From Archangiaceae bacterium (lineage in GTDB: Bacteria > Myxococcota > Myxococcia > Myxococcales > Myxococcaceae), in NCBI GenBank assembly GCA_043750125.1, contig JAYVCD010000389.1, positions 1-21,838 of the forward strand: 21,838 nucleotides of DNA, in the 5' to 3' direction. Made by a program: the position numbers and the translations under genes. The notes under the pieces were generated by a model that was not told the origin of the DNA, did no database searches, and was given only the letters and a program-made list of their open reading frames with translations. Of the stretch, positions 1 through 14,665 are shown piece after piece (the first letter of the stretch is position 1; each line of letters starts with the position of its first letter).

Positions 1-12
1 CTTGTCACTCAT
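1..12 (-). CDS. 5' end (MSDK...) of probable SctU/FlhB export switch protein, truncated by window edge
   Basis: Reverse complement of 1-12 is ATGAGTGACAAG. The ATG overlaps the sctT stop (ATGA). MS(D/E)K resembles the start of FlhB/SctU proteins, and this position follows fliR/sctT. Only 4 codons are visible. Confidence 0.55.
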
Positions 13-797
13 CGCGCCCGCCCGATGAAGGAAGTGAGATCCAGTGCGACCCCGTGCGAGAGCAGGCGTTCCATCACCACTCCAATCCCCAGCCACGTCA
101 CGGCGCCGCCGGCCAGGATGCGCAGCGGCGCCCCGGTGTCTTGAAGGTTCATCGCCGGCGAGCCGCGAGAGATCAGCCCAAGCAGACAATCGACGGCCAG
201 CGAGGCCGCGGCCACCGGAGCGCCGACCGCGAGACCCACCGCGAAGGCCGTCCCAACCAGGGCCGCGATCTGCAACACGACCGATTCACCCGAGACGTAC
301 GCACCCAGGGGAACGAGCGCAAAGCTCTTGAAGATCGCGCTCAGGATGAGGGGCATCACGGTTCCGCCCGCGGCCATGGCGATCAGCAATTGGTAGAGCA
401 CATCGCCGGTCGCAGATTCCTTGCTGTTCGCCCAGGGCAGCGCGGCTTCCGCTGAGCTGCCGCGGAAGAGATCGATGAATCGGCCGCCGATGCGAGCGGC
501 ATCGAAGGGAAGGGCCGAGATCAAACCCAGGGCGAGGCCGAACGTGACTTCTTTTCCAGCCCGCTGAGCAAACGTCAGCACGTCGGGTACGGGGCCTTCG
601 CCGCCGACGCCCGCCGAAAAATGAAGGAAGCCCGCCAGCGCCAACACCAGGGAAAGTTTGACGAAGGTGGGCGCCGACGACCCGCCCAGCAGGGGGCAAC
701 AGAAGGCGATCGGCAACAAGCGCGCGCTGCACAACGCAATCGCGACCAGGTGCGGCGCGAACGCTTTCAAATCGCCGTCAAAGTTGATCGGGTTCAT
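9..797 (-). CDS. sctT: Type III secretion export apparatus protein SctT (FliR/EscT/YscT family), ~262 aa
   Basis: Hydrophobic multi-TM protein with ARLLPIAFCCPLLG, KEVTFGLALG, GRFIDLFRG, KSFALVPLG and LLGLISRGSPAMN segments typical of FliR/SctT. Start moved to ATG 797, which overlaps the sctS stop (ATGA). Confidence 0.9.
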   Translation of the reverse strand: MNPINFDGDLKAFAPHLVAIALCSARLLPIAFCCPLLGGSSAPTFVKLSLVLALAGFLHFSAGVGGEGPVPDVLTFAQRAGKEVTFGLALGLISALPFDAARIGGRFIDLFRGSSAEAALPWANSKESATGDVLYQLLIAMAAGGTVMPLILSAIFKSFALVPLGAYVSGESVVLQIAALVGTAFAVGLAVGAPVAAASLAVDCLLGLISRGSPAMNLQDTGAPLRILAGGAVTWLGIGVVMERLLSHGVALDLTSFIGRAR

Positions 798-1063
798 GAG
801 ACCACGCTGGGCAACGCCATCAACAGTTGGGTCGTGAACCGGGTCAACTGGTCCGCGATCCATGGGCCCGCAATCACCAACCCCAGCACCGAGGCGCACA
901 GCTTCGGCACCACCGACAACGTGCTTTCCTGGATCTGGGTGGTGGCCTGAAACAGGCTCATCACGAAGCCGACCGCCAAGCTCGACAGAATCGGGGGCAA
1001 CGAAGCCAGCACCATCAGCAGCAGCGCTTCGCGACCCAGGCTCAGCAGAATCTCTTGACCCAT
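794..1063 (-). CDS. sctS: Type III secretion export apparatus protein SctS (FliQ/EscS family), 89 aa
   Basis: Signature SLFQATTQIQESTLSVVPKL, size, and position between sctR and sctT. Confidence 0.95.
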   Translation of the reverse strand: MGQEILLSLGREALLLMVLASLPPILSSLAVGFVMSLFQATTQIQESTLSVVPKLCASVLGLVIAGPWIADQLTRFTTQLLMALPSVVS

Positions 1064-1786
1064 CTATCGGTAGCCGAGGATCAGACCGCGAGAGAGCAGC
1101 GCCCAGCCGTCGACGGCAACGAAGAGCAGAATCTTGAACGGCATGCTCACCTGGCTCGGTGAGAGCGTTTGCATTCCGAGCGCGAGCAGGACGTTCGCGA
1201 CCAGCATGTCGAGCACCAGAAACGGCAAGAAGATCAAAAAACCGATGATGAAGGCTTCTTTGAGCTCGGTGAGCACGAACGCGGGGATGATCACTGTCAA
1301 ATCTTCTTCGGACACCGACTGGGCGTCCGACTCGGGCCGAAGCTCGCGGGCCATGTCGGCGAACCGGACCCGCTCATCGGGGTTCCCGTGCTTGATCAGG
1401 AATTCGCGCATCGGCAGCGCCACGGTGCTCGCCGATGAGATCAATTCTTTCGTGGTCGCGCTTTCGCTGTAGGCGTCTTTTCCCGCTGCGTACATCCGTT
1501 CCATCACCGGGGCCATGATGTGGGCGCTGAGCACCGCGGCGAGCCCGGTCAGCACCATTGTCGGCGGCGCCTGCTGCGTGCCCAGTGCTGAGCGCGCAAT
1601 CGAGAGCACCACCACAATCTTCGAGAAGCTGGTGAGCATCACGATCGCGAACGGAATCAGGGCCATCAACGCCAGCAGGCCCATCATCGGAAGGGGCGAG
1701 CTGGCCATCGACATCGGCTCGACTTCCACCGCCTTCGCAAGCGCCACCGAAGGGCCCAGAACGCCCATGATGCCCAGGGCTTTCAT
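1064..1786 (-). CDS. sctR: Type III secretion export apparatus protein SctR (FliP/EscR family), 240 aa
   Basis: Motifs TSFSKIVVVLSIARSALGTQQAPP, PAFVLTELKEAFIIGFLIFLPFLVLDMLVANVLLALGM and PFKILLFVAVDGW. ATG overlaps the upstream stop. Confidence 0.96.
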   Translation of the reverse strand: MKALGIMGVLGPSVALAKAVEVEPMSMASSPLPMMGLLALMALIPFAIVMLTSFSKIVVVLSIARSALGTQQAPPTMVLTGLAAVLSAHIMAPVMERMYAAGKDAYSESATTKELISSASTVALPMREFLIKHGNPDERVRFADMARELRPESDAQSVSEEDLTVIIPAFVLTELKEAFIIGFLIFLPFLVLDMLVANVLLALGMQTLSPSQVSMPFKILLFVAVDGWALLSRGLILGYR

Positions 1787-2196
1787 CGATCACCTTCCGG
1801 GACGAACTTTGGCAGGCTGTCGGTCACCCTCTGAGCCCGGCCTGACTTCTTGTCCTGCGGTGCGGAGATCACCGCATAGCCCTCGCCATGGACCACCAGA
1901 AACGAAGTGCCGTCGATGTCGACCAGCGCCAGCCCGGTCTTCGGAGCCAAACCCTCGCGGCAGACGACCGACATTCGCGGCGCGATCTGAAACCGGGCCA
2001 CCGCGGACCCCTTCTGCGTGCGCAACCACCAGAATCCGAGGCCGGCGAACGCGGCCACGGTGAGTGCCGCGCGGGCCACCGCCGCTGCAGAAATGCCGTG
2101 CGTGGTGGCGATCGCCAGCAGGCAGGCCAGCGCGATGCAGGCGAGGAGCAACTTCTTCCTCGGGCTCATTTTCGTCTCTGCCCCAAAGGCGCTCAT
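1783..2196 (-). CDS. fliO: FliO-like membrane protein, 137 aa
   Basis: N-terminal TM segments, then MSVVCREGLAPKTGLALVDIDGTSFLVVHGE, resembling the FliO cytoplasmic beta domain (l.vle...Lg.k..l.lv.v.g..fLvg). Occupies the fliN-fliO-fliP position, with ATGA overlaps on both sides. Confidence 0.7.
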   Translation of the reverse strand: MSAFGAETKMSPRKKLLLACIALACLLAIATTHGISAAAVARAALTVAAFAGLGFWWLRTQKGSAVARFQIAPRMSVVCREGLAPKTGLALVDIDGTSFLVVHGEGYAVISAPQDKKSGRAQRVTDSLPKFVPEGDR

Positions 2197-2432
2197 TTCA
2201 GGAGCCCAATGATCCGAGCGCCAATCTCGCCCTCGATGTCCACCAGCTCGGCGCGCGCCACCGCGCGATCACCGACGCGGAGCGTCACCGGTTCGGTCGC
2301 TCCAATGCGCAGTGACAGAACCGCGCCGGGACGCAGGGTCGCCAGCTCGCTCACACTGATGCGCAGCCGGGTGAGCTCGACTTCGACCTCGACCGGAAGG
2401 GAAGGGAAGCTGGCGTCGTCTTTGAGTTTCAT
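2193..2432 (-). CDS. Putative internally initiated SctQ C-terminal product (FliN-like SPOA2, 79 aa)
   Basis: In-frame ATG at 2432 preceded by AGGAG (2439-2443) with a 6-nt spacer, just before the last SPOA domain. Confidence 0.55.
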   Translation of the reverse strand: MKLKDDASFPSLPVEVEVELTRLRISVSELATLRPGAVLSLRIGATEPVTLRVGDRAVARAELVDIEGEIGARIIGLLK

Positions 2433-3371
2433 TTTCGGCTCCTGGGGAAGAGAGGTGGCTTCGGTTTCTGCGCGGGTCAGGGTGAAGCCCTGAGGCGAAA
2501 AGTGGCCATGCAGCTCGAAGGTAGACGTCACCAGCCGGGCGGGGCCGGACAGCGGGCCAGCGCCGGCTGCGACCGCGCCGAGCATCACTACGTCGCCCAA
2601 TTGCAGATGTGACAGGTCGCCGGCATCGAGCACGCACCGGCCGAAGAACGTGCGCATCGTGATTCTTGCCGCCAAAATTTCGGGGGCAATCTCCGTCGGC
2701 AGGTGTTCTTCGAGTGAAGCGATGGCGCTGTCACACCCAGGCGCCGGGAGCAACAGTCGGGCAGTTCCGAGGCTCTCGCCCACCTGCACCGTCAGCTCGA
2801 CCGCAACGTGGCGCACCCGGCAGTCGACGCGCTCGAGAATTTCGCCTCGCTCGATGTACACCGCGAGCAGCCGGGGCCCAAAGTGCTTGTGCAACAGCTC
2901 GACCTTGCGAATGCACGCCAGGCTCAGCAAACACAGCCAACCCAAAGCCGCCTCTTCGACCTGGGTCAGGCGGGTGGGAACCGACGTCCGCGCAGGGCTT
3001 CCCGCAACTTTTGCCAGCAGGACGTTGAGCGTGAGCAGGTCGAGCTCGACGACTGCCAGCTGCCCGAGCGTTCCCAGCTCGATCAACGCGAAGGCAGAGA
3101 AGCGCGACAGCCCTCCAAACGGATTGATCGCCGCGTCAACCACCCGGGCCTGCACCCGGACTTCCGCGCCCAACGACAAGGTCAGCTGTGCCGCGATCTT
3201 CGCCAGGGCGTCCTGACCTGCCTGCCCGACCGAAGGGCGGCGTGCGAGGTTCAGATGCGCCCGGGTCAAGCGACGGGCGGTGTTGCGCTTGAACAGCGAA
3301 ATTCGGCGCGTCGATGTGACGCGTTTGCTGTTCTGGCTCGATTGGGTGGTGACCGTCTGCGCTTCGAACAT
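2193..3371 (-). CDS. sctQ: Cytoplasmic ring / sorting platform protein SctQ (FliM/FliN SPOA domains), ~392 aa
   Basis: Two SPOA-like regions (FGRCVLDAGDLSHLQLGDVVML; VEVELTRLRISVSELATLRPGAVLSL...VARAELVDIEGEIGARI) and a FliM-middle-like segment (RLTQVEEAAL). ATG 3371 preferred over 3443; the start is uncertain. Confidence 0.88.
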   Translation of the reverse strand: MFEAQTVTTQSSQNSKRVTSTRRISLFKRNTARRLTRAHLNLARRPSVGQAGQDALAKIAAQLTLSLGAEVRVQARVVDAAINPFGGLSRFSAFALIELGTLGQLAVVELDLLTLNVLLAKVAGSPARTSVPTRLTQVEEAALGWLCLLSLACIRKVELLHKHFGPRLLAVYIERGEILERVDCRVRHVAVELTVQVGESLGTARLLLPAPGCDSAIASLEEHLPTEIAPEILAARITMRTFFGRCVLDAGDLSHLQLGDVVMLGAVAAGAGPLSGPARLVTSTFELHGHFSPQGFTLTRAETEATSLPQEPKMKLKDDASFPSLPVEVEVELTRLRISVSELATLRPGAVLSLRIGATEPVTLRVGDRAVARAELVDIEGEIGARIIGLLK

Positions 3372-3379
3372 GCCTGGCT

Positions 3380-3406
3380 CCACTTCACGGGGCTTGCCAG
3401 ACTCAA
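3380..3406 (-). promoter_or_regulatory. Sigma54-like (-24/-12) promoter motif upstream of sctQ
   Basis: Minus strand TTGAGTCTGGCAAGCCCCGTGAAGTGG: TGGCAAG-N4-GTGA, i.e. GG-N10-GA. 21/27 identical to the motif at 5798-5824. Confidence 0.5.
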
Positions 3407-3456
3407 CCCCGGGCAACGATGGACAACCCGCCCCACGAGGCATCCGCTCTTACGGA

Positions 3457-3909
3457 CTACCGGGTGGCTTCGCGGATGAGGCGCTGGGCGAGCTCTTCCA
3501 TCGCCGGGGCCACGGTGAGCTCGCTGCGCAATTCGAGGCTCGGGAAGAGCGAACGCTGCCAGGGGGCCAATCGGCGGTAGATCGCCAGTCGCATCGTAGG
3601 GCTGGCTGCGAACAGCAGGTCCTTGAGCCTGTTCGCCGCGTCGGGCTGGACGCCAAACGCGACGGCCATGCGGCCCTGGCGGGTTGCAGAGTCCCAGCTG
3701 CGGGCATCGACGGCGCAGGCCGTCGCGCGCTTGAGCGACCCGCCGCTCAAACCTGAAAGGAGCTCGGCCGAGTTGACCCGATCGACTCCGCTGACGAACA
3801 ACGCGAGCCGTTCGGCGAACCCTCGCGAGGCCGAATCAGCCCACGCAGGCCTGGGGCTTCGAATGACGAACGTCGGCTCGGGGTGGGTCGGCTCGTTGTC
3901 GCGGGCCAT
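3457..3909 (-). CDS. Hypothetical T3SS protein at the sctK/fliG position, with a FliG armadillo-motif-like segment, 150 aa
   Basis: Directly downstream of sctJ in the operon. LALFVSGVDRVNSAELLSGLS resembles the FliG ARM pattern (IALILSYLD...AA.IL..LP). Confidence 0.55.
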   Translation of the reverse strand: MARDNEPTHPEPTFVIRSPRPAWADSASRGFAERLALFVSGVDRVNSAELLSGLSGGSLKRATACAVDARSWDSATRQGRMAVAFGVQPDAANRLKDLLFAASPTMRLAIYRRLAPWQRSLFPSLELRSELTVAPAMEELAQRLIREATR

Positions 3910-3917
3910 GACGGCTT

Positions 3918-4745
3918 TTACGCCACCCGGCGCTGCACGCTGGGATTCACCACCAGCCGCTGCGGCGTGGTGATGGCCTTCGGGGTGAGCACCGGAAGCG
4001 TGGGAACTGTCGGCTCGGTGAGTCCGGTCGGCCGCGCAGGCTTGCGCCGCAGCTTCAGACCCATCACCACCAGCGCAGTGGCGAGGGCACTGAGCGACAA
4101 GCCCATCGCGACCACCACCACCCGAAGCTTGTCGCCCGTGGCCGCCAGGACCACCGGGGCGCTCACCTGGGTCGTGACGGGGTCAATCAGCACCACCACA
4201 TCGTCGGCCTTCAGCCCTTCGACCGAGGCCGCAATCAACGCGCGGATGGCACCGGTCTGTTGCTGAAGCCGCTCGAGAGCGACCGGATGAGCGCGAATCA
4301 ACGCCGAGGCTTTGGATGGCAGCAGCGCTTGACCCGGACGGCTGGGCGCGGGGACCGCCAGCTCGATTCCCGCCGATGCGACCCCGTCCATTCCTTCGAT
4401 CATCTGCTCGATGTCCCCCTCGAGCGCTTCCATCTGGCGCAGCCTTTCGGCGCTCGGGGTCTCGATCAACGCGGTTTGCGACGTGACTTCACGGGTGGTG
4501 GTCCGCGGGGGCCTCGGCAATTTCAGCTCGGTCAGAACCCGCAGAGCGTCGGTGGCGTGATCCTCATCCAGCTCGATGGCCCAGGTGGGCTTCTTGCTTT
4601 TTTCCAGCACCTTCCTCGCATCGAAGCCGCGGCTGACCAGCGCCGAGATGGCTTCATTGGCATCGCGCTCGTCGAGCCCATGTTGAATCTGAGACCGGCA
4701 ACCACTGGCGAAGAGAACGAGGACGGCGATTGCGCAACGGTTCAT
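3918..4745 (-). CDS. sctJ: Inner-membrane ring lipoprotein SctJ (YscJ/EscJ/PrgK family), ~275 aa
   Basis: Lipoprotein signal MNRCAIAVLVLFASG-C; IQHGLDERDANEAISAL, ETPSAERLR, LEGDIEQMIEGMDGV, SKASALI and LIAASVEGLKADDVVV; C-terminal TM followed by KLRRK. GAGG RBS before ATG 4745. Confidence 0.92.
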   Translation of the reverse strand: MNRCAIAVLVLFASGCRSQIQHGLDERDANEAISALVSRGFDARKVLEKSKKPTWAIELDEDHATDALRVLTELKLPRPPRTTTREVTSQTALIETPSAERLRQMEALEGDIEQMIEGMDGVASAGIELAVPAPSRPGQALLPSKASALIRAHPVALERLQQQTGAIRALIAASVEGLKADDVVVLIDPVTTQVSAPVVLAATGDKLRVVVVAMGLSLSALATALVVMGLKLRRKPARPTGLTEPTVPTLPVLTPKAITTPQRLVVNPSVQRRVA

Positions 4746-4762
4746 TGAAGGCCTCTGGAGGA

Positions 4763-5236
4763 TCAAATCTGGGTCTGGAGGATCTGCTTCACGCCGCCGG
4801 TCGCCTTCTCGATCACCTTTCCGGCCAGGTCGAGCTCCTGGCTCGCGCGGTACATCTGCGACTGCAGTGAAAGAAGCTCACCCGGCGTAAACGACTTTCC
4901 CGATTGAGCCAGCTGCAGCACCGATTCCATGCGCTTCTGCGCCGCCGCCACCTGGTCGATCATCTGCGTCGGCTCGAGCGCTTTGAGCGGCTGGCTCACC
5001 TGCAGTGCCCCCGCCCCGTGCACTCGGGACTGGCCCGCGGCCGCCCTCGTCTTTGCGTCGGCCCGTTGCGAAGTCTGGACCTTGAGCACTGCCCGCTCGC
5101 CCCGGGGCTGGGCCACCGGCGGCCCCTGCGTCGAGGCTTTGAACGTCTTGCTGAACTGCGGCGGGCCTGACTTCTGCGAAGGGCCGGACCCGCTGATGCC
5201 TCTGAAGCTCGCCGCGCCTATGCCCTGGATGGCCAT
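4763..5236 (-). CDS. Putative T3SS inner rod / needle adaptor (SctI, YscI/PrgJ/HrpB2-like), 157 aa
   Basis: C-terminus FTPGELLSLQSQMYRASQELDLAGKVIEKATGGVKQILQTQI fits the SctI pattern (P..LL..Q........eL..K...K....v..L...Q). Lies immediately upstream of sctJ. Confidence 0.7.
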   Translation of the reverse strand: MAIQGIGAASFRGISGSGPSQKSGPPQFSKTFKASTQGPPVAQPRGERAVLKVQTSQRADAKTRAAAGQSRVHGAGALQVSQPLKALEPTQMIDQVAAAQKRMESVLQLAQSGKSFTPGELLSLQSQMYRASQELDLAGKVIEKATGGVKQILQTQI

Positions 5237-5246
5237 GGTGGGCCCT

Positions 5247-5762
5247 TCAGCGGATGTTGTTGATGGCGGCCTTCGCCGAGTCGTGACGCAGCTTCAAGAT
5301 GTTGGTGAGGGTGTTGTACTCACGGCTCTCGGTCTGCATCTGCATCTGCACCATCATCGAGCGGTCGGCCTCGGCCCGCATTCCCGACAGCATGTCGGTC
5401 ATTCCCGCCGGCTCGACGCCCGAGGTTGCTGCGGACCCGCCCATTGACCCGCCGGCGACCGTACTGCCGACCGCCATGCCCCCCGCTGCGCTACCCGACC
5501 CATGGCTCGAAGATCCGCCGGTGAGGTTGAGCAGTCCACTGGCGGCTGAGCTGCTGCGAACGGACGAAGGGCTGTTGACCAGTGAAGAGACCGCGGACAC
5601 TGCGCTGCTGATGATCGGCATTCCGGTCAGCCCGCCGACCACCGACCCCGCGCGCAGAACCCCGCTCAGCGAGTTGTTGAGCACCTGGCCGAAGTCGTTC
5701 TTCGGAGTCTGACGCGCGAGCGTCGGGGTGATGGAAATGCGGGCGAGGTGGGTGTTGTCCAT
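5247..5762 (-). CDS. Putative T3SS needle/filament subunit (SctF-like C-terminus) with Ser/Gly-rich extension, ~171 aa
   Basis: C-terminus MVQMQMQTESREYNTLTNILKLRHDSAKAAINNIR resembles needle-protein C-terminal helices (PrgI ends ...SNTVKVFKDIDAAIIQNFR). First gene of the F-I-J-K order. GGAG RBS 7 nt before ATG 5762. Confidence 0.6.
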   Translation of the reverse strand: MDNTHLARISITPTLARQTPKNDFGQVLNNSLSGVLRAGSVVGGLTGMPIISSAVSAVSSLVNSPSSVRSSSAASGLLNLTGGSSSHGSGSAAGGMAVGSTVAGGSMGGSAATSGVEPAGMTDMLSGMRAEADRSMMVQMQMQTESREYNTLTNILKLRHDSAKAAINNIR

Positions 5763-5797
5763 TTGCGGGCTCCGGTGAAGTGGGTTGTGGCAGGGAC

Positions 5798-5862: not shown

Positions 5863-7101
5863 TCAGGGGGGAGATGGACGGGGCGGCGAATTCGGATCGA
5901 AGAAGTCGATCAACCCTTCGCGCTGGGCGTGAGCGTCTTCCATCGCCAGGTCGATCAACGCCCGCGCGTAGTCCCCATCGAACAGCAGGTAGCTGGCCAG
6001 ATCGGCCGACGAGAACAGCTGGCTGCGGGTCAGCCGCTGCAACATCCGGGTGGGAAAGCCCGACTTGTCGTTCACCAGGTTCTTGGCTTTGGCCTGTACC
6101 GCAGCCAGCTCGCCGAGATCTTTCGAAGGTCGAATCACCAGGTCTTTCACCCGCCGGTAGGGCTGGCCACGCATCTGGCTGACGGTCTGGTTCATCTTGG
6201 GCAAGAATTCGGGGCCGAAGGTCTGCGCGCCAGTGTCGAGAATCGCGTTGAACCGCCGCATTCGATCGAGGTCGTACTCGGTGTGATCGAGCATCAGGGC
6301 ATTGAGTACTTTGCCCATCAGCACCGGAGTCGAAGGGTAGCTGGTCATCGGCGCAGGCGCAGCCATCGGGCCCGGCGCGCGGTACCGCAGCGATAAGATC
6401 AGCACCCTTTCGGCCCCCAGGCGCAGCGCAGGCGACAGCGGGGTGTTCTGCCGGACGCTGCCGTCGCAGAAGTACTCCTCGCCGATCTTCACCGCCTTGA
6501 AGAGCATCGGAATCGCGGCAGAGGCCAGCGCATGCTCGGGGCCCAGGACCGCCTCTCGGGCCTCGGTGAAGGGGTCGCGGCTCCAGGGAGGCACGCCTCC
6601 TTCCTTCCGCTGCACGAAGACGACGGTCTTCCCATCGACAATGCGGGTGGTCGAGACCGACAGCGCGCTGAAGTTTCCGCGCGCGAGGTTGGCCGAGATG
6701 CGCGGCCAGGAAATCTGGGTGCGCACCATCTCTTCCAGCGGCGCCAGGTGCAGCAGGTCGTAGATTCTCCAACCGTCCGGGCGATCTTCTTCGCGCGCCA
6801 GGTTCCAGATTTTCCGGGTGATGGTCCACAGGTCTTCCCCGTCGACCCGGTAGACCTTCTCGAGCTGAAGCCCGGTCCAGAACGACGAGAGGATTTTCCC
6901 CTGCTCGCTGGGGATCTCGGCGCTGGCAGCCAGAAAGCAATTGGTGATCGCTCCGACCGAGGTGCCGCACAGCACGTCGAAATGAACGTGGGGCCGCACC
7001 GACGCGGGCAGCTCTTCGCGCAGGTACCGAATGATCCCGGCCTCGTAGGCGCCGCGGGCACCTCCGCCAGAGCAGACCAACGCAGTCGTAGGAGCGGGCA
7101 C
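5863..7101 (-). CDS. Patatin-like phospholipase family protein, 412 aa
   Basis: Oxyanion motif SGGGARG, nucleophile elbow GTSVG (GxSxG), ASAAIP and catalytic DGS. Confidence 0.92.
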   Translation of the reverse strand: MPAPTTALVCSGGGARGAYEAGIIRYLREELPASVRPHVHFDVLCGTSVGAITNCFLAASAEIPSEQGKILSSFWTGLQLEKVYRVDGEDLWTITRKIWNLAREEDRPDGWRIYDLLHLAPLEEMVRTQISWPRISANLARGNFSALSVSTTRIVDGKTVVFVQRKEGGVPPWSRDPFTEAREAVLGPEHALASAAIPMLFKAVKIGEEYFCDGSVRQNTPLSPALRLGAERVLILSLRYRAPGPMAAPAPMTSYPSTPVLMGKVLNALMLDHTEYDLDRMRRFNAILDTGAQTFGPEFLPKMNQTVSQMRGQPYRRVKDLVIRPSKDLGELAAVQAKAKNLVNDKSGFPTRMLQRLTRSQLFSSADLASYLLFDGDYARALIDLAMEDAHAQREGLIDFFDPNSPPRPSPP

Positions 7102-7131: not shown

Positions 7132-7155
7132 GCGACCGCAAAAGTTGCGACCGCA
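7131..7155. repeat. Perfect 10-bp direct repeat TGCGACCGCA x2 (5-bp spacer); each copy is quasi-palindromic
   Basis: TGCGACCGCA at 7131-7140 and 7146-7155, in the divergent patatin/PilZ intergenic region. Confidence 0.8.
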
Positions 7156-7210
7156 CCCTCGTGATCCACACTGCTTCAGGCCTGTCACTTCATTCCCAGG
7201 AGTCGCACCG

Positions 7211-7534
7211 ATGCAGACGATGACCGGAACCGCCGTTTCCACCCGCTATCACCCCCGGGTGGGCGCGCACCTGATGGTGAAGCTGAAGCTCAACGGGCGA
7301 GCGGTCTCAGCCCGGTCGACCGACCTTTCGATGGCGGGGCTGTGCCTTCAAGGCGAGTTCCCCGAGCTGGCCGACTTGGTGACCCTGGCCATTCCCCTGC
7401 CCGACGACAAGCAGCTCGTCACCGAGGCGAAGGTGAAGTGGCGCGAAGCAGGAAGGGTGGCGCTCGAGTTCGCCGAGCTCGACTGGGAAGACATGTTCGC
7501 CCTCGCCCGGTTTCTGCACCCGCTGCTGCCCTAG
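7211..7534 (+). CDS. Stand-alone PilZ domain protein (probable c-di-GMP receptor), ~107 aa
   Basis: RxxxR (RYHPR) and DxSxxG (DLSMAG) motifs; AGGAG RBS before ATG 7211. Confidence 0.88.
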   Translation: MQTMTGTAVSTRYHPRVGAHLMVKLKLNGRAVSARSTDLSMAGLCLQGEFPELADLVTLAIPLPDDKQLVTEAKVKWREAGRVALEFAELDWEDMFALARFLHPLLP

Positions 7535-7923
7535 TCTTTGCCGACCCGCGCGGCCCGAAGCCCGGCGACCAAATCGAGCAATTCGGCGCCCCGAAACGGC
7601 TTGTGGATGTAGCCGTTGGCGCCTGCGCGGGTCGCGGCTTCCACGTCGGACTTCTTCGCCTTGGCGGTGAGCATGTGCAGGGGCACGGCCGCCGTCGAAG
7701 GGTCGGCCTTGAGCAGGCGGCACACGGTGATTCCGTCCATCTGGGGCAGCACCACGTCGAGCAGAATCAAATCGAATCTCGAGGTGCGGGCGAGCTTCAG
7801 GCCTTCGATCCCGTTGGCCGCACACTCGACCTCGACTCCGTCTTCGGTGAGCATGCTCCGCACGAGCTCACGAATGACTGGCTCGTCCTCGACCACGAGG
7901 ATGCGGAAAGGCTCAGAGCTCAT
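7531..7923 (-). CDS. Single-domain response regulator (CheY-like receiver), 130 aa
   Basis: ILVVEDE, phospho-acceptor LILLD, MLTA and KPF motifs; no output domain. Confidence 0.93.
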   Translation of the reverse strand: MSSEPFRILVVEDEPVIRELVRSMLTEDGVEVECAANGIEGLKLARTSRFDLILLDVVLPQMDGITVCRLLKADPSTAAVPLHMLTAKAKKSDVEAATRAGANGYIHKPFRGAELLDLVAGLRAARVGKD

Positions 7924-7954: not shown

Positions 7955-10519
7955 TCACTCGTAGGCGAGCGCTTCCACCACGTCGAGGCCGGCCGCCCGG
8001 CGGGCCGGGTAGATGCCGGCCACAATGGCGCACACCGTCGATGCGGCGAGCATCTGCAGCGCCAGCTCGGCCGGGAAGATGAAGGGGAAGTTCCAGCCGG
8101 TGGACTGCACGCCGACGACCTTGGTCAGCGTGTACCCCAGCGCGTAACCAAGCGCGGTGCCGATGGTTCCTCCAGTGAGTCCAATCAACGCGGCCTCACC
8201 GATGAAGAGCTTGAGGACGTGGGTCGAAGACGCACCGATTGCCCGCAGCAGCCCAATCTCGCGGGTGCGGTCGAGCACCGCGGCGAGCAGGGTATTGATC
8301 ACCCCGAGCAGGGCCAGCAGCACCGCCACGCCTTCCATCGCGTAGGTCACCGCGAAGGCGTTGGAGACCAGGTCGTAGGCCTCTTTGCGAAGCTCGAGGT
8401 TCGAGAGCACGTAGAGGTCATGCTTGGATCCGAACCGCGCGTTGATCTCGCGGCGCACGTCTTCGATCTTCGAACGGTCCTTCATGTAGACCTGAAAAGT
8501 GTCGACGAGGTGATCGTTGAAGTCCCGGGTGAAGTAGCGGCGGTCCATGAAGACCGTGCCCTGGTCCGAGCTGTAGTCGGTGATCACCGCAGCGACCTTG
8601 TAGGTGTGGTCTCCGGTCGGAGTTTCCATCTTGAACGCTGAGTCGCGATGCAGATCTCTTCGGCGCGCCAGGTTCTCGCTGACCGTCACGTAGCCCGCGG
8701 CGCGCTCGTCCGGGGTGGGAAGGTGGCCTTCCATCACTTCGGGCTTGCCGCGCAGGTGATAAATCTCGGGGTCGAGCGAGACGATGTAGATCCGCAAACC
8801 GAGGACATCGGCCGGGTAGATGCGAACCATGTCGACCTTGTCGACCCCTGCCATCGCCTCGATCGGTTCACGCAGCTCGGCGTTCATCGGAGTGTTCTGG
8901 ACTCCACCCACTTTCGCCGACGAGGTGACGAACAGATCCGCGGGAATCGCCTGATCAATCCACTTCTCCGAGCTTTTCTGAAACGAGCCCACGAAGCCGG
9001 CGATGCAAATCGTCATCCCCACCCCAATCGCCAGCGCCGAGACCGGGACGGCAGTTCGCACCGGAGCGCGCGCGAAGTTGTCGGCGGCCAGTCTTCCGGC
9101 AATGCCCAGCGCCTTCTCACTGGGCCATTGGTAGACCCGCTGAAGCCCTCGCAGCAGCAGGGGTGACATCAACGTCGTCACCATCATGATCAAAAACATC
9201 GCCACGTAGCCGCCGAGGGGAAAGTTCTCAGTGGGCGGAGGAATTAACGTCGCGGGGTAGATCGCCGCGGCGAAAACGATCGCCAGCATCGTCGGCCACG
9301 ACTTGAGGCTGGCCAGGTCGGCGCCCGCCGCCACGTCACGCCGCAGCGCCTCGACCGGTTGTACCCGCGACGCGACGATCGCCGGCCGAAGCGCCGCAAA
9401 GACGCTGCCCAGAATTCCCAGGGCCGCACCCATCAACATCTGCTGGGGCCCCACGAAGACGTCCTTCGCATTCACCTGGATGTAGATGGACGAGATGGTG
9501 CCCGCGACCCAGCTGATCGCCAGCCGCGCCACCAGGGTGCCGAGGGGAATTCCAACCACGGTGCCGAACAGGCCGAGCACCGCTGCTTCGAGAGTAAAAA
9601 GCGCGCGAATCCGAAAGCGGGTCGAGCCCAACGCGCGCAGGGTGCCGATCTCGCGGCGGCGCTGGACGACGCCAATCGCGACGGTGTTGTAGACGAGGAA
9701 GACGCCGACCAGCAGCGCGACCCCCGAGCCGAGGTTGAGGCCCAGCTGGAAGCTGCGAATCATCTTCTCGACGCTCTGGCCCCGCCGCTCGGGGCGATCG
9801 ATCTTCATCCCCATGCCGCTCATCGCTTCCAGGCGGGGCTTCATCACGTCGATGCCCACCTTCGGGTCGATCGCCACGTCGATGCGATCGATGCTGCGGC
9901 CACGCCCGAAGGCCGCCTGGGCCGAGCCCAGGTACATCACCCCCACCGAGCCTCCAAACGCCTTGATCGGGCCCGTCTCTTTGAGCAGCCCGTGAATCAC
10001 GAAGTCGGCCGCCCCATGGGACGTGAGCAGGGTGAAGCTGTCGCCGGTCTTCAGCTTGTGCTCGCGCGCAAACCGCTCGCTCACCAGCATCCGGTCGGTC
10101 GAATTGAGGAATTCGAGATCGTCGGCCATCTGGCCCACGTCGCGATCTACGCCCTCGTAGGTCCGAAAGAACCCGTCGTCGAGCAGGTCGACCCCCATCA
10201 CGTACAGGCTCTCGCCGGGGGAGCCCTTGACCGGAGCAATCGCGGTCAAGCTGGCGGCAGCGTGACTCACCCCTTCGAGCTTCTGGACCTTCTCGAGCAG
10301 CGCATCGTCGAAGCCGACCTGCGTCCCCGCGATGGTGAGGTCGGCCTTCCCGGCGATGGTGTCGATGGTGGAACGAAACGCATCCATCACCGAGGTGTTG
10401 ATCGCCGCGATGCCGACCATGGTCGCAACGCCCACCGCAATGCCAAGCACGGTGATGCTGCTGCGCAAGGGCGAGCCAAAGATGTGCCGAATCGAGATCA
10501 GCCGCAGCAGGGCGAGCAT
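7955..10519 (-). CDS. ABC transporter permease, duplicated MacB/FtsX (LolC/E-like) architecture, ~854 aa
   Basis: Two FtsX repeats (VVQRRREIGTLRALG; VLDRTREIGLLRAIG) with periplasmic domains; ends YPARRAAGLDVVEAL. Start set to ATG 10519, 4 nt after the ATPase stop. Confidence 0.92.
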   Translation of the reverse strand: MLALLRLISIRHIFGSPLRSSITVLGIAVGVATMVGIAAINTSVMDAFRSTIDTIAGKADLTIAGTQVGFDDALLEKVQKLEGVSHAAASLTAIAPVKGSPGESLYVMGVDLLDDGFFRTYEGVDRDVGQMADDLEFLNSTDRMLVSERFAREHKLKTGDSFTLLTSHGAADFVIHGLLKETGPIKAFGGSVGVMYLGSAQAAFGRGRSIDRIDVAIDPKVGIDVMKPRLEAMSGMGMKIDRPERRGQSVEKMIRSFQLGLNLGSGVALLVGVFLVYNTVAIGVVQRRREIGTLRALGSTRFRIRALFTLEAAVLGLFGTVVGIPLGTLVARLAISWVAGTISSIYIQVNAKDVFVGPQQMLMGAALGILGSVFAALRPAIVASRVQPVEALRRDVAAGADLASLKSWPTMLAIVFAAAIYPATLIPPPTENFPLGGYVAMFLIMMVTTLMSPLLLRGLQRVYQWPSEKALGIAGRLAADNFARAPVRTAVPVSALAIGVGMTICIAGFVGSFQKSSEKWIDQAIPADLFVTSSAKVGGVQNTPMNAELREPIEAMAGVDKVDMVRIYPADVLGLRIYIVSLDPEIYHLRGKPEVMEGHLPTPDERAAGYVTVSENLARRRDLHRDSAFKMETPTGDHTYKVAAVITDYSSDQGTVFMDRRYFTRDFNDHLVDTFQVYMKDRSKIEDVRREINARFGSKHDLYVLSNLELRKEAYDLVSNAFAVTYAMEGVAVLLALLGVINTLLAAVLDRTREIGLLRAIGASSTHVLKLFIGEAALIGLTGGTIGTALGYALGYTLTKVVGVQSTGWNFPFIFPAELALQMLAASTVCAIVAGIYPARRAAGLDVVEALAYE

Positions 10520-10523
10520 CGCT

Positions 10524-11219
10524 TCAGGCCGCCGTCGCAGAACGGAGCAGTTCATCGCCGATCATCGCCCCGTCGGCGAGCCGAACGATCCGATCGCCGA
10601 CCTCGGCCGCCCGCGCGTCGTGGGTCACCATCACCACGGTCAGGTTTCGCGCCGCGGTCGCTTCGCGAATCAACTTCAGCACTTCACTGCCGGTGCGCGA
10701 GTCGAGGTTTCCCGTCGGCTCATCGGCCAGCAGCAGCGCCGGCTCGGTCAGCAGCGCGCGCGCCACGGCCACCCGCTGCATCTCGCCTCCTGACAGCTCG
10801 TCGGGACGGTGGTGATCTCGGCCGGTGAGGCCGACCGACTCGAGCAACGCGTGCGCGCGGGGAATCATCTCGTCACGGCTCTTGCCGGACAGCAGCGCAG
10901 GAAGAATCACGTTTTCGATCGCCGTCAGCGTCGGCAGCAGGTTGAAGAACTGAAAGATGTAACCCAATCGATCGCGTCGAAAACGCGACAGCTGGTCATC
11001 GGGAAGCTTCGCGATGTCGCGGTTTTCAATCGTGATGCTGCCGCTGGTCGGCACGTCCAGCGCGCCCAGCAGGTTGAGCAGCGTCGATTTCCCCGAGCCC
11101 GAAGCCCCCATCACCGACAAAAACTGGCCCTTGGGGACGACGAGCTTCTCGAGGCACAGCGCCCGCACTTCGGTCTTCCCGCGGCGATACACCTTGGTTG
11201 CGTTTCGGACTTCGATCAC
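10524..11219 (-). CDS. ABC transporter ATP-binding protein (LolD/MacB/SalX-like), ~231 aa
   Basis: Walker A GASGSGKS, signature LSGGE, Walker B LLLADE and VTHD. GTG start overlaps the upstream stop (GTGA). Confidence 0.95.
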   Translation of the reverse strand: MIEVRNATKVYRRGKTEVRALCLEKLVVPKGQFLSVMGASGSGKSTLLNLLGALDVPTSGSITIENRDIAKLPDDQLSRFRRDRLGYIFQFFNLLPTLTAIENVILPALLSGKSRDEMIPRAHALLESVGLTGRDHHRPDELSGGEMQRVAVARALLTEPALLLADEPTGNLDSRTGSEVLKLIREATAARNLTVVMVTHDARAAEVGDRIVRLADGAMIGDELLRSATAA

Positions 11220-11953
11220 AGCTGGGTCACTCCGTCGATTTGGGTCCACCCTTCGAGCCCGTTGGGTAATCGAATCCGCGCGAACTTGCCTGACTCTTCC
11301 ATCAGCCGAACCTTGAGGCCACTGTGGACCTCGAAAGCGACCTTCGCATTTTCACCGGGGAACTCACGCACCTGGGCGGTCGCAGGAAGCACCACCCCCT
11401 CGATGATCGTGCGGGCCACCCACGCATGGGCCGCCACCGCGGCTCCAGAGCTCGCTCCCAGAAACAACAGCCCTCCGCCCAACGTGGCCGCGAGCAGGCG
11501 ACCGCGCACCAACCACCGCCGCGCCACGAGCAGCGCGAAGCCGCCCCACCAGCAGATGAGGAACGTCAGCGAGAGCTCTCGTTCGTCGGTGGCCCGAACC
11601 AGGCGCTCGAAGAAGGCTTCGTCATTGCCGGCTCCGACCACCTGGTCCACCCGCAGCTTTCGCGCGTAAGAGAGGTTGGCCTCGATGTCGTCTTCGCGCG
11701 AGAGGCGACGGGCCCGCTCGAGGTACACCACCGCCTCGCCCAGCTCTCCGGCAGCCAGACAGGCGGTGCCGAGGTTGAAGAGCACGTCGGGTCCACCCAT
11801 TCCGTGGTCGAGCAACTTCAAATATCCGACCTTCGCCGTCGAAAAATCTTGTTTGTAATAGGCGTCGTTGGCCTGGGCAAAGACGCTCTGGGCTTCCTGC
11901 GGCGTGTAGTAGGTCGCCTGGCTCAACGCCAAAGAGAGAAGGGCGGCGATCAT
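11216..11953 (-). CDS. batE: BatE-like TPR + TM + SH3b-like protein, ~245 aa
   Basis: Signal peptide; TPR (FAQANDAYYKQDF...LFNLGTA...AVVYLERARRL...DIEANL); two TMs; SH3b-like end (FEVHSGLKV...IRLPNGLEGW). ATGA overlap with batD. Confidence 0.75.
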   Translation of the reverse strand: MIAALLSLALSQATYYTPQEAQSVFAQANDAYYKQDFSTAKVGYLKLLDHGMGGPDVLFNLGTACLAAGELGEAVVYLERARRLSREDDIEANLSYARKLRVDQVVGAGNDEAFFERLVRATDERELSLTFLICWWGGFALLVARRWLVRGRLLAATLGGGLLFLGASSGAAVAAHAWVARTIIEGVVLPATAQVREFPGENAKVAFEVHSGLKVRLMEESGKFARIRLPNGLEGWTQIDGVTQL

Positions 11954-13767
11954 TTCGAGTCCCACGCTTCCATCGCGGCCGCGGCGTCATCGAGCGCCCG
12001 ACTGCGTGCGGCCGCCTCGCCCATGCCCGGCGCAAATCGGCCCATGTCACACGTCTCGAGCACCGCGAGCACCCGGGCGCGAATGTCAGCTGCGACGCTG
12101 CCTTGCACCATCAGCGCCTCGAGCTGGCTTCGCTGCAGGCCGGTAATCGGTTCCGACAGCTTCGCTTCGAGGAAGGACGCCAGCGCCTTCTCGACTTCGG
12201 CGTAGAAGTCGGCCGCCTTGCCCGTGCGCTGGATCTTCACCGCTTCGGCCAGCCGGGCGCGTGCGGCCTTGGCCTGGCGCCGGCGGTTGGCCACCGGGTC
12301 GTTCTTGGTCAAGCTGCGCCGCGCGAGCCCGAACAGGCCAAAGCCCAGGGACAGACCCAGGGGCGCCAGCGCCAGCGGCAGGAAAAAGGGCTGACTGAAC
12401 AACGGGGGCGCAGGCGCACGGAAGCTTCCGGTATGGCGCAGCGACTTGAGGCCGGTGGCGACGAGTTGGTTCTTCTGGCCGGGATCCACGTTGGCCGAGT
12501 TGGGGACCGTGACGACGGTGCTTCCGCCCGGGCCCGGGGTGACGGTCAGGCTGATCGGGTCGGTCTTCGAGTCTTCGAAGCGCTTCGTTTCGGGGTTGAA
12601 GAACGCGAAGGTCAGGCCGGGCAGGGTGACGGTGCCGGTCTGCTGGGCGAGGATCACGTATTCCATCGTCCGCTTTCCACCGAGCATCCCCTTGGTCGAG
12701 GTCAGACGATCTGAAGTCTGAGGTTCGTAGATCTTCAGCGACGAGGGGCCGACCAGAGGCGGCAAGACGGCGTTCTTCAGGTTCCCTTTCCCCTCGAGAA
12801 TCACCTTCACCTGCACCGGCTCACCGAGGGCGATCTTAGTCTGCGAGACCTCGGTCGACAGGCGCCAGTGGCCGACGTTGGTGGTGGATCCTCCCTTGGG
12901 CAGCGGCTTGACCTTCAAGGTCAAGGCATTGCCGCGGCGGTGAGTCCGATGCCCCGCGAAGAGGTAGCCGGTGGTGATGTCTGCTTCGGCTGCATCAATG
13001 GTGAGAACTCCGCCCTTCACCGGAAAGAGCGCCCGGCGGCGAAGCAGGTACGACCGGTACGGAACCCCTCCGATGATCTTCTGCTCGGGGCTCAGCTGGG
13101 TGGGCGATTCGATGTCTTCGCTCCAGAAGCCTTCGAGCTTCGGCATCGTCACCGAGTCCACGCTGGACAGCTCGCTGCGCGAGTAGATGGTCAACGACAG
13201 CGTCACCTGCTCACCCAGGTAGATTTCGTCGCGATCGATCGCGGCGCGCAGAAAAAGGTCCGAGTCCGAGTGCGGAATCTCGGGCTCGTCTTGTCCGGGG
13301 AAGGCCCCTCCGAAGGGATCGCCGCCGAAAGGAGAGGGAAACGCCGTCCGCGGGTTCTGCGCCTGCGCCGGGGGGTTGACCCTGCCCTTGCTCACTTCGA
13401 CCTTCACCACCTCGGTCTTGTAGGTCCGCCCACCCGCCGAGAGGACCGAGGCGGGGATGGACAGGGTCCCGACCCGGTTCGCGCGCAGCACCAGCGAGTA
13501 CTTCTGGACGTTCTTGATGTTGCCCGCGCCGGCCGAGCCAATCGAGTAGCTCATCTGCGTCGACTGGGTGCGCGAGAGGACTTCGAGGTCGGCCGGAGCC
13601 GGGAACTGAACCGTGGCCCCATCGGGTGCGCCCGCGACCACGATCGTCAGCCGAAAGGTGTCTTCGGTGCCGACCTTGTCCCGGTCGACCGTCTGGTAAA
13701 ATTCGACGTCCGCCAGCGCCGGCGTCGCCAGAAGCAGCATCGCGAGCGCGCTACCAATCCTTGCCAT
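11950..13767 (-). CDS. batD: BatD family protein, 605 aa
   Basis: Signal peptide; repeated Ig-like BatD units (TVDRDKVGTEDTFRLTI; IDRDEIYLGEQVTLSL; ALFPVKGGVLTI; GEPVQVKVILEGKGNL; FAFFNPETKRF); C-terminal TM and RFAP helical domain. Confidence 0.85.
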   Translation of the reverse strand: MARIGSALAMLLLATPALADVEFYQTVDRDKVGTEDTFRLTIVVAGAPDGATVQFPAPADLEVLSRTQSTQMSYSIGSAGAGNIKNVQKYSLVLRANRVGTLSIPASVLSAGGRTYKTEVVKVEVSKGRVNPPAQAQNPRTAFPSPFGGDPFGGAFPGQDEPEIPHSDSDLFLRAAIDRDEIYLGEQVTLSLTIYSRSELSSVDSVTMPKLEGFWSEDIESPTQLSPEQKIIGGVPYRSYLLRRRALFPVKGGVLTIDAAEADITTGYLFAGHRTHRRGNALTLKVKPLPKGGSTTNVGHWRLSTEVSQTKIALGEPVQVKVILEGKGNLKNAVLPPLVGPSSLKIYEPQTSDRLTSTKGMLGGKRTMEYVILAQQTGTVTLPGLTFAFFNPETKRFEDSKTDPISLTVTPGPGGSTVVTVPNSANVDPGQKNQLVATGLKSLRHTGSFRAPAPPLFSQPFFLPLALAPLGLSLGFGLFGLARRSLTKNDPVANRRRQAKAARARLAEAVKIQRTGKAADFYAEVEKALASFLEAKLSEPITGLQRSQLEALMVQGSVAADIRARVLAVLETCDMGRFAPGMGEAAARSRALDDAAAAMEAWDSK

Positions 13768-14665
13768 TGGCTCTCTTGGATCGCTTCTGCTGGAAGCGCC
13801 ACAGTTGAAGATTTTTCTCGCTGTTCTTCATCGAATCCAACAGCTTTTCGGCTTCGGCCCGGGACAACGAGTTGCCTCCATCGCGCTCTTCTCCAGCCTC
13901 GCCACTGACCCCGCCGTCCTCGTCCATTCCGCCGCCGTCGCTGCCTCCATCGCCCGTCTGAGTCCCCTGCTGTCCCGCATCGCCTTGCTTCTCGCCTTCG
14001 CCGTTGCCGCCGTCGCTGCGCCCGCCGTCGCTGCCACCATCCCCGTTGCCCTTGCCAGCGTCCAGCCCACCGTCCCCCGCCGCCGGCTTCCCGCCATCCG
14101 TCCCCGCATCGCCGCGGCCCGCATCGGCCGTGCCTGCGTCCCCCGGTTTGCCCCCGTCGGTGCCCCCGTCGGGCCGGCCGGCGTCGGCTTTTCCCCCGTC
14201 GGGAGTGCCGCCGTCTGGGCCCGGGGGCTCCTGTTTGGGAGGAAGATCGCGCAGCATCACTTCGAGGTTGTGCCGCGCGAGCGCGTCTTTGGGGTCCAGC
14301 CGCAGCGCGCGGCGGTACTCGGCGACCGCTTCCTTCTTGTTGTTGAGCGCCGCCTGCACGTTGCCCAGGTTGTAATGAATGCGCTCAGTAAGCTCGCCCT
14401 TCCGATCGAGGCCCAGCGACTGGTTGAAGGCTTTGATCGCTTCTTCGTTTTGCCCGAGCTTGTGAAGGGCAGCGCCGCGGTTGAAATGAATGGTCGCGTT
14501 GTTCGGCAGCTCTTTGTCCGCCGCATCGAACTTCTCGACCGCCTTGTCGTATTCGCCCCGCTCGAACGCTTCCATCCCCTGGTCCACCAACGGGTGATTC
14601 TTCTCCAGCGGCCCCATCGCCAGCGCGGAAGTCGCAACCAGCAGTGTCAGCGCGAACCCCTTCAT
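13751..14665 (-). CDS. batC: BatC-like TPR protein with acidic Gly-rich linker, 304 aa
   Basis: Signal peptide; TPRs (HFNRGAAL, HYNLGNV, YRRALRLDPKDALARHNLE); low-complexity linker; LSRAEAEKLLDSM..E and terminal KDW, typical of BatC. Confidence 0.8.
   Translation of the reverse strand: MKGFALTLLVATSALAMGPLEKNHPLVDQGMEAFERGEYDKAVEKFDAADKELPNNATIHFNRGAALHKLGQNEEAIKAFNQSLGLDRKGELTERIHYNLGNVQAALNNKKEAVAEYRRALRLDPKDALARHNLEVMLRDLPPKQEPPGPDGGTPDGGKADAGRPDGGTDGGKPGDAGTADAGRGDAGTDGGKPAAGDGGLDAGKGNGDGGSDGGRSDGGNGEGEKQGDAGQQGTQTGDGGSDGGGMDEDGGVSGEAGEERDGGNSLSRAEAEKLLDSMKNSEKNLQLWRFQQKRSKRANGKDW
13874..14215 (-). repeat. Coding low-complexity repeat: about 19 D(A/G)G tripeptides
   Basis: PDGGTPDGGKADAGRPDGGTDGGKPGDAGTADAGRGDAGTDGG... 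in the BatC-like protein. Confidence 0.85.

Follow-up and report, generated by a model that had tools for sequence, protein, structure and literature searches.

Could a secretion system of type III (T3SS) that is described in print as needleless encode a needle subunit of its own? The question is raised by a 171-residue protein encoded within a T3SS gene cluster in a 21,838-nt stretch of DNA from an Archangiaceae bacterium (contig JAYVCD010000389.1 of assembly GCA_043750125.1), hereafter the window. A preliminary description, made from the sequence alone, had proposed this protein as a candidate needle or filament subunit in a T3SS lineage usually described as needleless, and this is indeed how the lineage appears in the literature. 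The parts of Abby and Rocha (2012) that treat the Myxo systems report them as being without the needle subunit SctF, which "should have been found" if it were there, infer that an ancestral SctF was lost, and consider it conceivable that the ancestral state was an SctF structure in the periplasm (PMC3459982). Likewise, the sections on the cluster in two reviews and a 2025 Kil-pilus paper give its content as SctD, SctJ, SctI, SctQ, SctRSTUV, SctN and SctL, without a needle, translocon, or secretin (PMC10433427, PMC10849154, PMC12075869). Our literature search, for which supplementary gene tables were out of reach, found no paper naming an SctF homolog in myxobacteria. From the comparisons presented here, the protein (hereafter the candidate) is probably a divergent and enlarged axial subunit of the SctF type, polymerizing or assembling within the myxobacterial "needleless" T3SS. 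The real interest of this interpretation is that it contradicts a repeated statement on a model system.

Similarity of the C-terminal helix to needle subunits

The candidate open reading frame (ORF) lies on the minus strand and runs from an ATG at 5762 to a stop codon at 5249–5247. Its start methionine matches the start of its homologs, and its translation contains both the C-terminal peptide and the segment GMPIISSAVSAVSSLV singled out in the preliminary description. Relatives of the candidate are numerous: 499 of the 1344 proteins considered reach E ≤ 0.001, cluster representatives at 50% identity number 376, and 425 places were confirmed among 566 pattern matches in contigs representing one genome per species; every relative that bears a source name is a "hypothetical protein". 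Conservation counts and profile comparisons are based on an alignment of 83 family members (A2). The protein falls into three parts (Table 1): a conserved N-terminal part, consisting of an unstructured beginning with an RQTP..FG motif, a predicted helix (residues 24–39) and a PG..V.SAAVS segment; a variable linker; and a nearly invariant C-terminal helix. The linker is Ser/Gly/Ala-rich, as had been described (G, S, A and T make up 72% of residues 63–120), is predicted to be disordered (predicted local distance difference test score (pLDDT) 41–57), and ranges from 37 to 65 residues across the 83 homologs, almost without conserved columns.

Variation of the C-terminus among homologs had been named as a sign against the proposal, and the opposite was found. 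Within the C-terminal helix, Q139, N154 and N169 are invariant across the 83 homologs, and Q143, E145, K157, D161, K164 and I167 are each at least 90% conserved. All but one of the family members (82 of 83) stop at the residue aligned with R171, which is also the end point of the SctF proteins of the Salmonella pathogenicity island 1 (SPI-1) type; the remaining member has a single extra residue. Together with the outcome of the permutation controls given below, this conservation indicates that the Q...N..K...D....I.N.R pattern noted in the C-terminal region is more than a chance resemblance.

Comparing A2 with needle subunits using hhalign, we obtained an alignment running from C-terminal end to C-terminal end even with MxiH as a single sequence. 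Against an SctF alignment consisting of SPI-1-type sequences only, the match had P = 2.7e-4 (probability 42%), improving to P = 6.5e-5 (64%) when YscF and AscF were included and to P = 1.1e-5 (82%) when EscF was also added, so that three subfamilies were represented. The last of these alignments spans 44 columns and pairs residues 128–171 (window positions 5250–5381) with positions 43–86 of 86, thereby covering SctF helix 2 in full, from the turn to the last residue. In building the SctF alignment, the search seeded with YscF, AscF and MxiH had only SPI-1-type needles in its best 120 of 747 matches, and EscF of the locus of enterocyte effacement (LEE) was added instead. For calibration, the SPI-1 and Ysc needle families matched each other with P = 7e-11, and SctF matched canonical SctI with P = 2.4e-4. 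The needle-type C-terminal helix of the original proposal is thus specifically SctF-like.

This specificity is evident from the remaining comparisons. A set of 34 single-sequence templates included four SctF and four SctI proteins, ten flagellar axial or cap proteins, chaperones, translocators and regulators; the top two for the candidate were the needle subunits EscF (P = 9.4e-4) and MxiH (P = 1.1e-3). There was no match to a four-member SctI alignment (P = 0.77) or to its members taken singly (MxiI, P = 0.48; YscI, 0.33; AscI, 0.059; EscI, 0.15), and none of the flagellar axial proteins was significant (P = 0.063–0.83, with FlgB best at 0.063, FliE at 0.24 and FlgC at 0.62). The family encoded by the next gene downstream showed the reciprocal preference, with P = 2.6e-5 against the four-member SctI alignment versus 0.12 against SctF, and MxiI (2.6e-4), AscI (2.7e-3) and FlgC (4.8e-3) as its best single templates. 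The evidence for an SctF-like candidate equals in strength that for the neighbor being SctI, which is already accepted in the field.

Could such a match arise from chance or from the convergence of amphipathic helices, the candidate being a T3SS-associated protein specific to the lineage, with an unrelated origin and function? We consider this highly improbable. Although curated searches all remained below threshold, fold searches were empty and the similarity is short (see below), the controls speak against it: three other conserved ORF families of the same loci gave P = 0.70–0.94 against SctF, the reversed SctF profile scored 8.5 versus the observed 30.8, and no permuted SctF profile, whether column-permuted (150) or helix-only-permuted (150), reached 30.8 (mean 11, standard deviation 2.5, maximum 20.6). 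The stepwise rise of the signal as SctF subfamilies were added, the reciprocal specificity with the SctI-like neighbor, and a prgI-like gene position kept in two paralogous modules likewise argue against a chance resemblance.

The residues that are conserved include those aligned with functional positions of the Salmonella needle. According to the part of the structural study that treats the lumen and subunit contacts, the charged, conserved residues Lys66, Lys69, Asp70 and Arg80 of PrgI form the raised edge of the lumen groove, and the terminal Arg80 touches Gln77 and Asn78 of one neighboring subunit and Lys66 of another (PMC6155069). We paired PrgI with the candidate through the hhalign alignment to MxiH and the three-residue offset between PrgI and MxiH, counting over the 83 members. 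Lys66, Lys69 and Asp70 of PrgI correspond to K157 (80/83 members), H160 (73/83) and D161 (76/83) of the candidate, and Gln77, Asn78 and Arg80 correspond to N168 (49/83), N169 (83/83) and R171 (68/83); in MxiH, the partners of K157, H160, D161, N169 and R171 are K69, K72, D73, N81 and R83. As in SctF, the helix runs to the C-terminus of the protein, and polar residues are kept at the positions that pair with the lumen and the C-terminal network of PrgI.

When the 83 members were scanned with Pfam at E ≤ 10, the outcome pointed in the same direction. The three families matched by most members are T3SS needle or pilus families, in each case below threshold and in the C-terminal helix: PF09392 (T3SS_needle_F, the "EscF/YscF/HrpA family"; 17 of 83 members, best E = 0.0021), PF06266 (HrpF; 13 of 83) and PF09589 (HrpA_pilin; 10 of 83, best E = 0.0014 at 19.7 bits, below the Pfam threshold of 25 bits). 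The members matched 44 Pfam families in total, of which 25 were listed; no Flg or FliE family appears among those 25. Among ten distant members inspected, one matches PF09392 (E = 0.26) and two match HrpA_pilin (E = 0.0014 and 0.57). The three named clusters that lie nearest to residues 112–171 in the ESM Atlas carry PF09392 (scores 0.85, 0.83 and 0.83), which we take only as a lead.

Gene order, distribution and relatives of the candidate

As had been proposed, the candidate gene directly precedes the rod-like gene and sctJ, an order (candidate, SctI-like, sctJ) that equals mxiH-mxiI-mxiJ and places the gene, like that of SctF, with sctI and sctJ. This linkage extends well beyond the window, in line with the proposal, for which homologs unlinked to T3SS loci had been named as a contrary outcome. 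Among the best 80 of the 425 genome loci, an SctI-like gene lies downstream of the candidate in 78, adjacent in 76 and a few kb off in a different module in 2; in the other 2 loci, the contigs stop within about 200 bp of the candidate. The same 80 loci contain sctJ in 76 cases, sctQ in 67 and sctR in 64.

Across 401 sampled Myxococcota genomes, the family profile matches 337 and SctR/FliP (PF00813) matches 345, tallies that count one unpublished genome (G196). In the taxonomic family to which the window belongs, the candidate family and SctR/FliP are each found in 163 of 171 genomes and are missing from the same 8. Because related genomes are not independent, this distribution is to be read as co-occurrence, not as a statistical test.

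Natural short forms of SctF size were sought within the family, and the short entries, of 74–122 aa, proved to be ORF fragments or to be without the N-terminal part; the shortest complete forms have 133–138 aa. At the other extreme stands a 744-aa protein (P0224) with a signal-peptide-like start, in which seven tandem copies of the N-terminal motif region of the family are followed by the family's C-terminal motif.

The ortholog in Myxococcus xanthus (L066:1800–2258, 152 aa) is a "hypothetical protein" in all sources, and the gene downstream of it carries the DK1622 annotation "type III secretion apparatus protein, YscI/HrpB family" (ABF85834.1). The same SctI-like protein (L066:2274–2759, 161 aa) goes under "ATP-dependent helicase HrpB" in the majority of NCBI and UniRef records, evidently a confusion of names with the T3SS protein HrpB.

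The genome from which the window derives (G000) holds further relatives. A 194-aa paralog on contig C284 (L089) belongs to a module at 494–5688 on the minus strand, in the order paralog, TPR protein, 125-aa protein, FliA-like sigma factor, SctI-like protein (PF17001, E = 0.0037), SctJ-like protein and FliG_C-like protein; this order recurs in two other genomes (loci L070 and L077). The TPR protein of the module shows no similarity to YscG, AscG or IpgC (P = 0.3–0.9). A second full export-gate cluster, on contig C132 (L092), encodes a 212-aa protein (9404–10042, minus strand) between sctU and sctV, flanked by three TPR proteins. Its C-terminus matches Flg_bbr_C (E = 0.0013) and PF09392 (E = 0.013), both below threshold, and by hhalign it is similar both to A2 (P = 5e-5) and to SctF (P = 3.9e-4, the turn being among the 58 aligned columns); it thereby links the candidate family with SctF. 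A search with this protein as the single query gave no relatives across 60 further genomes of the order. Its C-terminal domain also occurs in the same genome on contig C1 (C1:16563–16859), at 63% identity, in a 782-aa open frame. Given the C284 paralog and the C132 relative, these myxobacterial systems seem to hold several cryptic SctF-like proteins.

These neighborhoods bear on another possibility, namely that the candidate is a secreted T3SS substrate or regulator, for instance a partner or chaperone of another protein in the manner of HrpF, a gatekeeper, or an anti-sigma-like factor that is exported, whose helix resembles SctF through binding the same gate or chaperone surfaces. The TPR protein and FliA-like sigma factor beside the paralog, the sub-threshold HrpF matches, and the largely disordered predicted structure are all consistent with such a role. 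Within the window, however, no sigma factor adjoins the cluster. Moreover, the candidate shows no similarity to FlgM (P = 0.21), YopR (0.28) or SepL (0.99), nor to YscE or YscG, and the near invariance of its last 45 residues across the phylum, with an alignment anchored at both C-termini, fits a packed structural helix better. We consider a substrate or regulator distinctly improbable.

Limits of the likeness and the structure that the candidate may form

Several results weigh against an SctF-type subunit. Curated profiles do not recover the candidate: it has no match in Pfam or NCBIfam even at E ≤ 10, a six-frame scan of the whole genome with PF09392 gave nothing over the cut-off, and the PF09392 gathering score of 29.4 bits, by which SctF membership was judged, is reached neither by the window protein nor by any of its 83 homologs. 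The preliminary description had foreseen as much in remarking that the protein could be missed by standard SctF profiles. A search of PDB sequences with the family profile (hmmsearch) returned no T3SS protein; there were 8 matches at E = 0.11–5.7, the best of them a phage tail-fiber protein aligned to the N-terminal and linker part. No PF09392 match is seen in 66 of the 83 homologs, and because single members match unrelated families at similar E-values (IATP, 3.5e-4; FAM199X, 6.6e-4), the Pfam argument rests on recurrence and not on any single match. The similarity to SctF is itself limited to about 44 residues of one amphipathic helix, and YscF and AscF alone gave P = 0.11.

Outside this helix, the two proteins differ. 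The N-terminal 65 residues of the candidate have no similarity to helix 1 of SctF (hhalign P = 0.66), a result for which we dropped a by-eye likeness between the conserved Phe and P-G-x-P of the N-terminal half and the spacing of helix 1 and the turn in MxiH. SctF is a hairpin of about 70–90 residues, composed of a helix, a P-x-x-P turn and a second helix, whereas the candidate has no P-x-x-P turn directly before its C-terminal helix and, as the preliminary description had pointed out, is about twice the usual needle length (150–191 aa across the family versus 73–87 aa in SctF). SctF also has no counterpart to the Gly/Ser/Ala-rich insert or to the conserved N-terminal motif. In further contrast to SctF systems, no gene for a YscE/YscG-type chaperone adjoins the candidate in the window (TPR proteins do flank the C284 paralog and the C132 relative), and the system has no secretin; in the portions of the literature cited above that describe them, these clusters are without a secretin for a needle to cross.

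Structure prediction did not supply the missing hairpin. AlphaFold2 (AF2) with the family alignment gave a helix at 121–170, with block-mean pLDDT of 86–97 over 121–160 and 81 at the C-terminal end, together with the shorter helix at 24–39 and a disordered middle, at a predicted template modeling score (pTM) of only 0.31; a 138-aa homolog gave the same picture (pTM 0.33). Foldseek searches of the PDB with the two models returned nothing at E ≤ 0.001, the lone row being vimentin at E = 6.4, a comparison that carries no information for a lone long helix with disorder around it. Thus, the helical hairpin for which an AlphaFold and Foldseek check had been suggested was not obtained. Modeling of a four-copy complex with A2 scored 0.01 versus a mark of 0.42, in a run made without controls that counts neither for nor against assembly.

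Other axial proteins offer partial parallels for an enlarged subunit. The pilins of the HrpA/HrpY type (PF09589) and HrpF (PF06266) are longer than needle subunits and combine a variable N-terminal part with a conserved C-terminal polymerization helix, and the candidate resembles them in length and, as judged through sub-threshold Pfam matches, in the helix; the N-terminal part of HrpA pilins is variable, whereas the N-terminal motif of the candidate is conserved. EspA, the filament protein of the LEE T3SS, is of similar size (192 aa) and has a C-terminal helical polymerization region. The suggestion of an EspA-like filament nevertheless found no support: EspA of E. coli O157 Sakai, a single-sequence template of low sensitivity, gave P = 0.25 with hhalign. 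Flagellar axial proteins (FliE, FlgB/C/F/G, FlgE, FlgK/L, FliC) resemble the candidate in having conserved segments at their ends and a variable insert between them, but even the best match among them, to the C-terminus of FlgB, is weak. SctI (MxiI, YscI, EscI; PF17001) is, like the candidate, small and axial, carries a conserved helix at its C-terminus and is itself remotely similar to SctF, and yet it is the neighbor, not the candidate, that matches SctI.

These parallels lead to the possibility of a non-polymerizing axial protein of the SctF/SctI superfamily, that is, an adaptor or cap present in a few copies on SctI that would close or extend the gate in the periplasm as a second "rod" layer like FliE/FlgB. 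The same sequence and synteny evidence fits this arrangement; the relevant sections of two of the papers report neither a secretin nor a tip or ruler in the clusters (PMC3459982, PMC10433427); the secondary likeness to FlgB and AscI, although weak, goes in this direction; and the conserved N-terminal motif, absent in SctF, suggests a specific docking contact. Sequence cannot tell a long tube from a few-copy adaptor. On the other side, the best matches of the candidate are to needle subunits and not to SctI, FliE or FlgC, and conservation extends to the residues that pair with the C-terminal network of PrgI, through which subunits contact each other in the filament. On balance, we hold an adaptor to be unlikely, if by no means negligible.

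If the candidate is an SctF-type subunit, it would be exported through the SctRST/SctV gate, as its lack of a Sec-type hydrophobic start suggests, and would assemble or polymerize on the adaptor SctI, the product of the following gene, as SctF does on SctI in injectisomes. By analogy with helix 2 of SctF, the invariant C-terminal helix would line the channel, and the Gly/Ser/Ala-rich insert, which is variable, would lie on the outside. Since the clusters lack a secretin, the product would probably be a short periplasmic tube and not an extracellular needle.

A bolder proposal, which we put forward as speculative and doubtful, is that the myxobacterial T3SS* is not needleless at all: the candidate would polymerize on SctI into a periplasmic SctF-type conduit that hands lytic effectors, for example the patatin-like phospholipase encoded upstream, to a co-recruited Kil/Tad secretin-pilus machine, and its enlarged form, with terminal helices and an insert, would be a surviving intermediate on the way from flagellar axial proteins to the minimal needle. 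If true, this would overturn the inferred loss of SctF in the basal "Myxo" lineage. The Myxococcus T3SS* serves both as the model for a prey-lysing secretion system and as the basal branch in the accepted history of injectisomes, and both lines rest on the premise that a needle subunit is missing. With an SctF-type candidate, the evolutionary reading would shift from SctF lost to SctF retained, divergent and enlarged, and the gene would offer a tangible candidate, easy to delete, for the periplasmic conduit that is missing. Given that sctQ is MXAN_2445, and from the gene order, the M. xanthus ortholog probably falls inside the published delta-mxan_2438-2451 deletion.

The gene cluster and its surroundings

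The T3SS genes of the window all lie on the minus strand, in the reading order patatin-like phospholipase, candidate, SctI-like, sctJ, a 150-aa gene, sctQ, a FliO-like gene, sctR, sctS and sctT, with sctRST reaching the contig end (Table 1).

Table 1. Parts of the candidate and genes of the T3SS cluster, in window coordinates.
Feature	Coordinates	Strand	Basis
Candidate, divergent SctF-like (needle-subunit-like) protein	5247..5762	-	ORF and translation, homologs, hhalign
Ribosome-binding site GGAG, 7 nt before ATG 5762	5770..5773	-	direct sequence reading
Residues 1-62, conserved N-terminal part	5577..5762	-	alignments A1 and A2, AF2
Residues 63-120, variable linker	5403..5576	-	composition, length range, AF2
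Residues 121-171, nearly invariant C-terminal helix	5250..5402	-	AF2, hhalign, conservation counts
SctI-like (inner rod/adaptor), 157 aa, begins 10 nt past candidate stop	4763..5236	-	PF17001 E 0.0094, NF038054 E 0.035, both below cut-off
sctJ, inner-membrane ring lipoprotein	3918..4766	-	PF01514 E 7.4e-17; TIGR02544 E 1.4e-39, below cut-off
Conserved 150-aa gene between sctJ and sctQ	3457..3909	-	present in 67/80 loci
sctQ, cytoplasmic ring	2193..3443	-	TIGR02551 E 1.2e-32, over cut-off
137-aa gene in fliO position (between sctQ and sctR), weakly FliO-like	1783..2196	-	TIGR03500 E 0.0019, PF04347 E 0.13, both below cut-off
sctR, export gate	1064..1786	-	PF00813 E 6e-64
sctS, export gate	794..1063	-	PF01313 E 7e-26
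sctT, export gate	9..899	-	PF01311 E 2e-35
Patatin-like phospholipase, directly upstream of candidate	5863..7101	-	PF01734 E 2.8e-23; weak CBASS-lipase-like NCBIfam match, below cut-off

The Pfam and NCBIfam scans assigned no family to the 150-aa gene. The weakly FliO-like gene is kept in 65 of the 80 loci.

The patatin-like phospholipase gene lies upstream of the candidate in just 41 of the 80 related loci and is thus an insertion in part of the lineage. Because T3SS* is required for prey lysis, its product is a plausible secreted lytic effector; ExoU is a T3SS effector of the patatin type.

Beyond this gene, the cluster is flanked by a PilZ-domain gene (7145–7534, plus strand) and a response-regulator receiver gene (7531–7923, minus strand). 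An ORF at 7307–7825 (minus strand) that the synteny scan had "matched" across genomes as a conserved neighbor was rejected as a wrong-frame artifact overlying these two genes. Farther along, at 7955–16569 on the minus strand, lie an ABC transporter pair of the MacB/FtsX type and, after it, a Bat-like operon for TPR/SH3, BatD, TPR and VWA proteins; the FtsX gene neighbors the T3SS cluster in 45 of the 80 loci.

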